DNA of 64,000 bases from Promethearchaeota archaeon (GTDB lineage Archaea; Asgardarchaeota; Lokiarchaeia; Sigyniarchaeales; SOKP01), in NCBI GenBank assembly GCA_019058365.1, contig JAHPZE010000011.1:32001-96000 (forward strand), given 5' to 3'. The notes beneath the pieces are model-generated. The model had not been told where the DNA came from, ran no database searches, and saw nothing but the letters and a program-made list of their open reading frames with translations. Below are positions 52,300 through 52,398 of this stretch, one piece after another (the first letter of the stretch is position 1; each line of letters begins with the position of its first letter). The position numbers and the translations under genes are program-made.

Positions 52300-52398
52300 A
52301 TGAGAGATAAAAATGAAAAATGTTGTTCTGAAGGATGTTGTGGTGAAGAGACTAAAAGTGTAAAAGAAGAAATTCAGTCAAAAGAAAGATGTTGTTAA
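52300..52398 (+). CDS. 32-aa Cys-Cys-rich peptide, metallothionein-like (not in ORF track)
   Basis: MRDKNEKCCSEGCCGEETKSVKEEIQSKERCC; SD GAGGT at 52284-52288. Confidence 0.72.
   Translation: MRDKNEKCCSEGCCGEETKSVKEEIQSKERCC

Follow-up and report, generated by a model that had tools for sequence, protein, structure and literature searches.

A short cysteine-pair peptide encoded behind a cysteine-rich MarR-family repressor in Promethearchaeota

The peptide gene, its promoter and its regulator

We consider here a very short gene in a 64,000-nucleotide stretch of contig JAHPZE010000011.1, from an uncultured Promethearchaeota archaeon; this whole stretch, with a composition of 29% GC, is referred to below as the window. 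Reading and translating the open reading frame (ORF) at 52300-52398 (+ strand) gives MRDKNEKCCSEGCCGEETKSVKEEIQSKERCC, a peptide of 32 codons with three Cys-Cys (CC) pairs and no aromatic residues, exactly as described in an earlier note on this DNA that was made from the letters alone. No other ORF of 20-60 residues with at least two CC pairs occurs across the window, and 200 local shuffles averaged 0.09 such ORFs, never one with three pairs. The exact peptide sequence is already present in a protein collection (sources NCBI and Logan), and a tblastn search of its own genome for paralogues matched only the locus itself. Neither Pfam (E up to 0.01) nor NCBIfam (E up to 1), metallothionein and ArsD models included, holds a family that matches the peptide, and in the ESM Atlas it matched only unnamed clusters at uninformative scores of 0.86 or below. 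AlphaFold2 (AF2) predicts no confident fold (predicted local distance difference test 58, predicted template modeling score 0.19), as is expected for an apo thiolate peptide.

The gene upstream, on the same strand (51681-52157, probable ATG at 51690), encodes a MarR-family repressor (PF01047, 3e-17). The region between the two genes contains the Shine-Dalgarno (SD) motif, TATA-like box and operators that the earlier note had reported, all of which can be located by coordinates on the + strand. A perfect 14-bp palindromic operator, GTTAGGATCCTAAC (52242-52255), abuts the TATA box TTTTATATA (52233-52241), which together with a purine-rich element resembling a TFB recognition element (BRE), CGAAACAAAAC, makes up a promoter at 52222-52241 that is conserved at MarR-bearing loci. 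Transcription is predicted to start about 25 nt 3' of the TATA box. An upstream copy of the operator, GTTAGGATCTTAAT, with two mismatches to the palindrome, occupies 52204-52217, an additional half-site, CCTAACTA, lies at 52261-52268, and the SD-like GAGGT (52284-52288) ends 11 nt 5' of the ATG. Behind the gene, about 50 nt 3' of the stop, is a conserved oligo-T tract, TTTTTATTTTTTTAAGTTTTATTTC (52451-52475, + strand). A further operator-like site, ATTAAGAACCTAAC (51661-51674, + strand; three mismatches), is found just 3' of a TATA-like GATATAAA and 5' of marR itself, which suggests that MarR may also regulate its own synthesis.

Much the same layout recurs at related loci, described below. 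The approximately 110 nt upstream of the peptide are strikingly conserved, running from GTTAGGATCTTAAT through cGAAACGAAAC-TTTATATA to GTTAGGATCCTAAC and then to GAGGT, 6-12 nt before the ATG. The SD-like motif is present at 24 of 29 loci and operator half-sites at 26; the three operator-less loci are exactly those in genomes without a MarR gene. The oligo-T tract, a probable archaeal termination signal, is conserved 50-70 nt 3' of the peptide stop and is absent where the next gene starts within 20-60 nt. With a promoter, flanking predicted operators, an SD motif and an oligo-T tail, most copies of the peptide gene appear to constitute a transcription unit of their own.

Conservation of the peptide and its genomic partners

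A tblastn search for short ORFs, of the kind that the earlier note had proposed, shows that the peptide is conserved: together with a profile search it recovered 32 relatives, spread over approximately 30 of the genus's 53 genomes and three (G121, G124 and G140) that belong to a sister genus. The sources are metagenome-assembled genomes of uncultured Promethearchaeia/Promethearchaeota (Asgard) that are mutually related, and the counts given here and below are not independent. Neither the family's remaining 11 genera nor 24 relatives farther away gave a convincing match to the peptide. When 1.84 billion protein representatives were searched with the profile, six matches came back, every one from the same narrow family, indicating that there is no wider one. 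The peptide family is thus both unrecorded and narrow.

Members are 25-36 residues long, and the 29 homologues aligned by codon differ in length only by multiples of three. Variation is greatest at third codon positions, pooled pN/pS is 0.52, and M1, C8, C9, K19, C31 and C32 are invariant even though the cysteine codons switch between TGT (118 instances) and TGC (13 instances). Because indels are exclusively in frame, pN/pS is about one half and the cysteines persist through this switching, the ORF at 52300-52398 is a real, conserved gene under purifying selection rather than a chance reading frame. The consensus may be written M-x-D-K-D-x-x-CC-S-E-E-x-K-(acidic)-Q-S-K-E-G-CC, with up to two further residues before the stop (C-terminal variants are CC, CCS, CCK, CCD and CCSK); the Q-S-K-E block is nearly invariant, and the linker between the CC pairs, rich in charged residues, varies in sequence and contains in-frame indels. 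Cysteine makes up 15-19% of residues, phenylalanine and tryptophan are absent from all 29 members, and tyrosine occurs in only one (L004).

The emphasis that the earlier note placed on three CC pairs holds for the window copy; family-wide, two pairs are conserved. Those two correspond in the window to C8C9 and to C31C32, the final residues before the stop, whereas C13C14 (in the context EGCC) stems from a lineage-specific tandem duplication of five codons (12-15 nt), GAAGGATGTTGT, common to four genomes, one of which has YC in place of CC. The third pair is a recent addition. The G124 peptide carries a different internal duplication, and the copy in G003 is decayed. In G100, a second, degenerate copy (L017:~2353-2436) lies between the flavoprotein and HgcA-like genes and terminates in ...NEYCR rather than ...CC; it is probably decaying. 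Considered across the family, the product is plausibly an intrinsically unstructured, acidic mini-peptide whose only fixed chemistry would reside in two vicinal Cys pairs about 18 residues apart.

The most regular feature of the surroundings is the MarR gene, which lies approximately 140 nt upstream of the peptide on the same strand at 29 of the 32 loci; with palindromes overlapping the peptide promoter, the arrangement is that of a MarR-regulated unit. G121 and G124, although from the other genus, have cassettes that nest within the genus clade of a MarR tree, implying that the MarR-peptide pair moves as a unit. The genes that follow the peptide vary from locus to locus: a flavoprotein gene and then the HgcA-like fusion described below, the fusion directly, the flavoprotein gene and an endonuclease IV-like gene, an endonuclease IV-like gene alone, or unrelated genes; in G140, an HgcB-like gene begins 27 nt after the peptide. 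Since MarR is upstream at nearly every locus while the downstream genes vary in this way, the constant partner of the peptide is the upstream MarR and not the HgcA-like gene. Separately, we note that in one MarR subclade (G007, G029, G035, G011 and G022; L063, L064, L066, L090 and L094) the gene following the cassette encodes the endonuclease IV-like TIM-barrel protein and not an HgcA-like one. The peptide is also retained beside flavoprotein and HgcA-like fusion genes in three genomes that have no MarR; in G097 (L040), where MarR is missing too, the peptide gene follows the flavoprotein gene and precedes the HgcA-like one.

The MarR proteins are themselves rich in cysteine. Cys14, a CxC motif (72 and 74) in the first helix of the helix-turn-helix (HTH), with context AETCNCSRSTITG, and a CC pair (129 and 130), with context NGCCPE, are invariant in 24 distinct orthologues. 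The best named NCBIfam match is OhrR, at 50 bits against a cut-off of 200. As(III)-sensing winged-helix repressors coordinate their ligand at three-sulfur (S3) sites that have arisen convergently, examples being Cys32/34/37 in the DNA-binding domain, Cys95-96-102 and Cys15-16-55 (PMC11868830). A CxC in the DNA-binding domain and CC pairs are known building blocks of such sites, and the cysteine-rich MarR suggests a response to metalloids. In the literature that we searched, we found no report of a MarR-family arsenic sensor.

Downstream of the peptide, the window holds an FMN_red flavoprotein gene (PF03358; 52587-53213, + strand) whose product, with a CX2CX2CX5C motif, resembles iron-sulfur flavoproteins (Isf); it is an optional cluster member, following the peptide at about half of the loci. 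Assignment of this protein as ArsH was rejected: in NCBIfam there was no ArsH match, the best being a weak WrbA/SsuE-type one. The window also encodes a paralogue at 50087-50653; the two are approximately 25% identical, and their four-Cys motifs (CX2CX2CX7C at 50087-50653, CX2CX2CX5C at 52587-53213) both resemble those of iron-sulfur flavoproteins of methanogens. Next comes a 561-residue fusion (53210-54895, + strand) of a CpaM-type S-adenosylmethionine (SAM) methyltransferase, an HgcA-like corrinoid domain with cap helix GINVWCAARGNNFG, and a transmembrane domain, and then a gene for an HgcB-like ferredoxin with two [4Fe-4S] clusters and the C-terminus ...NSCCG (54944-55249, + strand). The union with CpaM suggests that SAM may be the methyl donor for the corrinoid.

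The earlier note had placed the peptide next to hgcAB. HgcA-like and HgcB-like genes are indeed nearby, but a flavoprotein gene intervenes and both fall short of the respective NCBIfam cut-offs: the fusion scores 169.3 bits against 275 for HgcA, 175.1 against 285 for HgcAB_like and 136.9 against 180 for CpaM (NF043040), and the ferredoxin 53.5 against 99 for HgcB_ferredoxin. The cap helix of the fusion reads GINVWCAARG, and the motif that defines HgcA is G(I/V)NVWCAAGK (PMC7438021). These neighbors are therefore not canonical HgcAB. Asgard sequences have been placed within a clade of fused HgcAB, the Pyrococcus furiosus member of which was reported not to methylate mercury (PMC10083202). A second HgcA-like system in the same genome (L127:2456-4236; G000:C48) consists of a separate CpaM (219 residues) followed by a fused HgcAB-like protein (363 residues, GINVWCGACG), and adjoins a ZIP-type transporter.

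The peptide does not co-occur consistently with an HgcA-like gene. The fusion is present in approximately 110 of the 135 genomes of the family, as against approximately 33 with the peptide; all 20 sampled fusion loci without MarR are also without the peptide and share one arrangement, in which TM201 (a 201-residue multi-pass membrane protein of no known family) is divergent from the fusion and an HgcB-like gene follows it; and 11 peptide loci have no adjacent HgcA-like fusion. At the same time, 21 of the 32 peptide loci have an HgcA-like gene within 1.5 kb downstream, which, together with the three MarR-less genomes mentioned above, points to a looser tie between the peptide and the flavoprotein-fusion operon. 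TM201 (50911-51516, - strand, divergent from the locus in the window) adjoins the locus in nearly all genomes, whether the MarR-peptide cassette is present or not. On the far side, the HgcB-like gene is followed in many related loci by one for a 285-residue protein with weak gelsolin/DUF7904 similarity (55289-56146, - strand, in the window).

A sister MarR clade and its arsenic context

The closest relatives of these regulators form a sister clade (50%-59% identity, support 93/90) with cysteines at the same positions, in the contexts ACCCSPSTITG (a CCC in the HTH) and NCCEG (a CC pair). Genes of this clade lie directly upstream of bona fide genes for the arsenite methyltransferase ArsM, which score 335-367 bits against a model cut-off of 263. 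Their promoters carry, beside TTTATATA, GTTCGGATCCGAA-type palindromes that differ from the focal operator by one base per half-site. Members with the CCC/CC signature precede ArsM at L100:2038-3439, L106:2040-3509, L113:2051-3520 and about 13 further loci. On the strength of this association, the CCC/CC subfamily may be put forward as a MarR-family arsenite sensor.

The ArsM proteins encoded behind the sister MarRs begin M-E-D-x-E-I-K-K-I-V-R-E-R-Y-G... and continue with two or three CC pairs spaced 7-20 residues apart. Copies of this tail also exist as free-standing genes of 44-45 codons, at L106:3714-3845 (+ strand) and L112:2731-2865 (- strand), matching the ArsM N-terminus with BLAST E values of 3e-13 and 3e-12, respectively. 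In G142, a 44-residue free tail copy follows ArsM, and in G141 a 45-residue copy is the first gene behind a MarR with an ArsM-type promoter, with ArsM itself 78 kb away on the same contig. G141 thus seems to offer an independent case of a MarR driving a CC...CC mini-peptide.

A connection between HgcA-like proteins and arsenic genes is also seen in sister genera. In G086 (G086:C6, L050:1253-6438), a co-directional cluster runs DUF166, ACR3 (281.9 bits against 282.8), ArsM (347 bits), CpaM-HgcA-like, HgcB-like and a 129-residue protein, and G061 has the order MarR, ArsM, DUF166, CpaM-HgcA-like, HgcB-like. The ArsM of G086 has three N-terminal CC pairs, its HgcB-like protein carries SSCC near the N-terminus and LCCG at the C-terminus, and the 129-residue protein, which matches no family, has an N-terminal CC...CC tail. 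The HgcA-like pair of G086 is thus embedded in an arsenic operon. In strain ND132, hgcAB is under arsenic-responsive control by ArsR (bioRxiv 10.1101/2022.10.17.512643), and ars genes lie near hgcAB in bacteria (PMC7438021); the arrangements in G086 and G061 may be regarded as archaeal parallels to both. Within the window itself, the nearby MFS transporter, cupin and U32-type genes belong to no arsenic-specific family.

The possibility that the peptide is merely the stump of a deleted ArsM was considered and rejected, as tblastn with ArsM found nothing directly after the peptide at the focal loci; the only matches there were to the CpaM domain of the fusion, at approximately 30% identity, reflecting generic similarity among class-I methyltransferases.

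A candidate ligand for soft metal(loid)s, and its rivals

Taking these observations together, we consider that the peptide may be a thiol ligand, made when repression is lifted, that buffers or carries As(III)-like metal(loid)s, a reading to which we assign a probability of roughly 0.5. It draws support from the cysteine-rich MarR, from the sister clade that would control ArsM, from the CC...CC tails of those ArsM proteins and from the existence of free tail peptides. The most likely ligand on this reading would be an arsenite-like soft metal(loid), and the tie would be to the regulator and not to the HgcA-like gene; the genomic context speaks for metalloids of the arsenic type no less than for mercury.

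We infer that MarR represses the gene, that it answers to a particular signal, and that the peptide binds and may hand over metal; these steps could be connected as follows. In the resting state, MarR dimers would sit on the two predicted operators flanking the TATA box and block access of TBP/TFB or of polymerase. Binding of a thiophilic metal(loid), most probably arsenite or a related trivalent species although Hg(II) is also possible, to the CxC, the CC pair and possibly Cys14 of MarR would release the repressor and open the promoter. The peptide, disordered when free, would then wrap around As(III) (S3 coordination) or Hg(II) (S2-S4) by means of its two CC pairs, ligating the same species as MarR through three or four thiolates and serving as a sacrificial buffer. 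It might also act as a carrier, passing the metal(loid) to the Isf-like flavoprotein, the CpaM-HgcA-like protein or the HgcB-like protein where these are present, or alternatively to HgcB-like and ArsM-type proteins by way of their thiol tails.

The arrangement is best classed as a variation on the theme of a metalloregulator paired with a small thiol ligand, and several known systems offer partial precedents. A metallothionein or metal chaperone had been proposed in the earlier note; of this, a thiol ligand for metal(loid)s survives as the best reading of the evidence, while no metallothionein family matches the peptide. The operational traits of metallothioneins (low mass, high cysteine content and a lack of aromatic residues) are nonetheless all present. 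In SmtB-SmtA, a derepressible, aromatic-free, Cys-rich buffer protein is encoded beside a metal-sensing winged-helix repressor, and the peptide would be analogous in being small, Cys-rich, aromatic-free and next to a winged-helix repressor gene. It differs in having only four cysteines (six in the window copy) and hence no multi-metal thiolate cluster, in being archaeal, and in that its gene and marR are co-directional and not divergent. ArsD of Escherichia coli R773 binds As(III) for hand-over and possesses the vicinal cysteines Cys12-Cys13-Cys18 and the pairs 112-113 and 119-120 (PMC4562236). Like the peptide, it is a small cytosolic vicinal-Cys protein encoded behind a thiol-based winged-helix repressor; unlike it, ArsD is regulated by ArsR and not by a MarR-family protein, spans approximately 120 residues with a thioredoxin-like fold, and has ArsA as a partner, whereas the peptide has 25-36 residues, is unfolded in AF2 and lacks a fixed partner gene. 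An ArsD-type S3 site needs a vicinal pair and a third thiol, and the two invariant CC pairs of the peptide family provide four.

MerA takes up Hg(II) through a C-terminal vicinal Cys pair (PMC12874090). Flexible tails ending in CC, which are thought to deliver Hg(II) to the active site, are a feature shared by MerA, HgcB and, in the form ...SCCG, the HgcB-like protein here. Such tails belong to enzymes, however, whereas the peptide is the product of a separate gene, has a second CC pair, and is only facultatively linked to the HgcA-like/HgcB-like pair. A further likeness is to the ArsM tails, with which the focal peptides share the pattern CC-(7-20 mostly polar residues)-CC(G), the MarR subfamily and a near-identical layout of operator and promoter. 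The focal peptides have no counterpart of the opening ~18 residues (MEDxEIKKIVRERYG...), and are acidic and rich in Lys where the ArsM tails are Ser/Pro-rich.

Several observations weigh against a role as metal(loid) ligand. The hidden Markov model of the focal family retrieves no ArsM tail, and hhalign aligns the two with a probability of only 18% (P 0.0014), albeit with the CC pairs in register; homology between them is thus not demonstrable, and we treat the likeness as functional. ArsM itself is found in 24 of the 53 genomes of the genus and in approximately 13 peptide carriers, but not in the genome studied here, and presence of the peptide and absence of ArsM across genomes show no complementarity or other clear pattern. 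Most HgcA-like loci of the family are accompanied neither by ars genes nor by the peptide. Four thiols are few for a metallothionein-type cluster, and the Isf-like flavoprotein, the endonuclease IV-like neighbor and the sub-threshold OhrR match would suit a function in oxidative stress.

The last of these points leads to the alternative that the peptide serves thiol redox chemistry, with an OhrR-like, oxidant-sensing MarR inducing a product whose CC pairs cycle between dithiol and disulfide as a redox buffer, as an electron shuttle to the Isf-like flavoprotein, or as a decoy. That both peptide and MarR are rich in cysteine, and that OhrR is the best named match of the latter, would agree with this, as would the frequent flavoprotein neighbor and the endonuclease IV-like gene. 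We nevertheless regard it as improbable, though the likeliest of the rivals: the OhrR score is far under its cut-off, the five invariant MarR cysteines (CxC in the HTH, CC) fit a metalloid S3 site better than a one- or two-Cys peroxide sensor, the sister clade drives ArsM, and linkage to endonuclease IV is limited to a single subclade. Vicinal disulfides are, moreover, strained and rare. The proposal of the earlier note, that the peptide feeds a mercury-methylating HgcAB, would have its CC pairs pass Hg(II) to the HgcB tail and on to the HgcA cobalamin. The resemblance of the C-terminal CC to the HgcB-like tail, the HgcA-like genes within 1.5 kb at 21 loci, their persistence beside the peptide in the MarR-less genomes and the HgcB-like gene directly behind it in G140 are all in keeping with such a route. 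The idea fares poorly, however, against the distribution of the two genes, given how much commoner the fusion is than the peptide, the 20 sampled fusion loci that lack the peptide, and the 11 peptide loci that lack the fusion; against the sub-cut-off scores and the NVWCAARG (not NVWCAAGK) of the cap helix; against the failure of the fused-type P. furiosus paralogue to methylate mercury (PMC10083202); and against the fact that the MarR relatives control ArsM and not mer or hgc genes. We therefore consider it unlikely.

The remaining explanations have still less in their favor. Were the ORF a regulatory leader or upstream ORF, stalling of ribosomes at the paired Cys codons would sense Cys-tRNA and tune downstream read-through, and its brevity, the conservation of the Cys pairs above all other codons and the oligo-T tract behind it might be so understood. 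This is very unlikely. The RNA between the predicted start and the T-tract is no more stably folded than shuffled sequences (z = +1.3), and the leader region has neither an Rfam match nor a hairpin terminator, which argues against an attenuator; the downstream genes are not Cys-biosynthetic, differ among loci and are at some unrelated or absent; non-Cys positions are conserved as well (K19 invariant, Q-S-K-E nearly so); and the gene has its own promoter under predicted repressor control. Equally slim is the chance of a mini-protein built around a metal cofactor, such as a rubredoxin- or desulforedoxin-like Fe(Cys)4 or a Zn site, serving the flavoprotein or ferredoxin as an electron carrier or as a structural partner. 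Four invariant cysteines in two pairs and redox-protein neighbors might suggest it, but there is no hydrophobic core, CxxC knuckle or confident fold, the charged linker is variable and has in-frame indels, and several genomes have no redox neighbors. Least probable of all, to the point of being barely credible, is a precursor of a modified or lipidated product, whether a ribosomally synthesized and post-translationally modified peptide or one prenylated in the manner of Rab proteins. The peptide is short and Cys-rich, and its ends (CC, CCS, CCK, CCD, CCSK) recall the CC, CCX and CCXX termini of eukaryotic Rabs; yet leader-core organization is lacking, and no gene for a radical-SAM enzyme, YcaO, lanthipeptide enzyme or prenyltransferase is conserved alongside in about ten contexts. 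The radical-SAM precursor, which the earlier note had offered as its alternative, was rejected because no maturase is conserved in any context.

Returning to the favored role as a thiol ligand for As(III)-like metal(loid)s, we can also envisage a more specific function, which we regard as speculative and rather improbable: the peptide might be the substrate arm, in detachable form, of a metalloid methylation that depends on cobalamin and not on ArsM. Its CC pairs would bind As(III) or a similar soft metalloid, as the N-terminal tail of ArsM does, and present it to a SAM-loaded CpaM-HgcA-like protein that is reduced by the HgcB-like and Isf-like proteins. If true, this would imply that HgcA-like paralogues, and by extension HgcAB, are natively engaged in arsenic chemistry, and would bring to light an arsenic sensor of the MarR type in Asgard archaea.

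What HgcAB and its widespread paralogues natively do is a long-standing question, for which a link to arsenic has so far been shown in one bacterium (ND132). The locus described here is a compact module comprising a Cys-rich MarR with a defined predicted operator, a peptide of 27-32 residues, short enough for easy synthesis, and an HgcA-like corrinoid protein fused to a presumed SAM methyltransferase, and its sister arrangements (MarR-ArsM and ACR3-ArsM-HgcA-like) indicate which metalloid to consider first. The peptide locus has value as a way into the chemistry that HgcA-like proteins natively perform. Should the peptide bind As(III) or Hg(II), and should MarR respond to the same species, the two would be, respectively, a small gene-encoded thiol ligand new to archaea and the first MarR-family metalloid sensor; otherwise, the peptide would stand as a conserved and well-defined small protein of those prokaryotes that are most closely related to eukaryotes.

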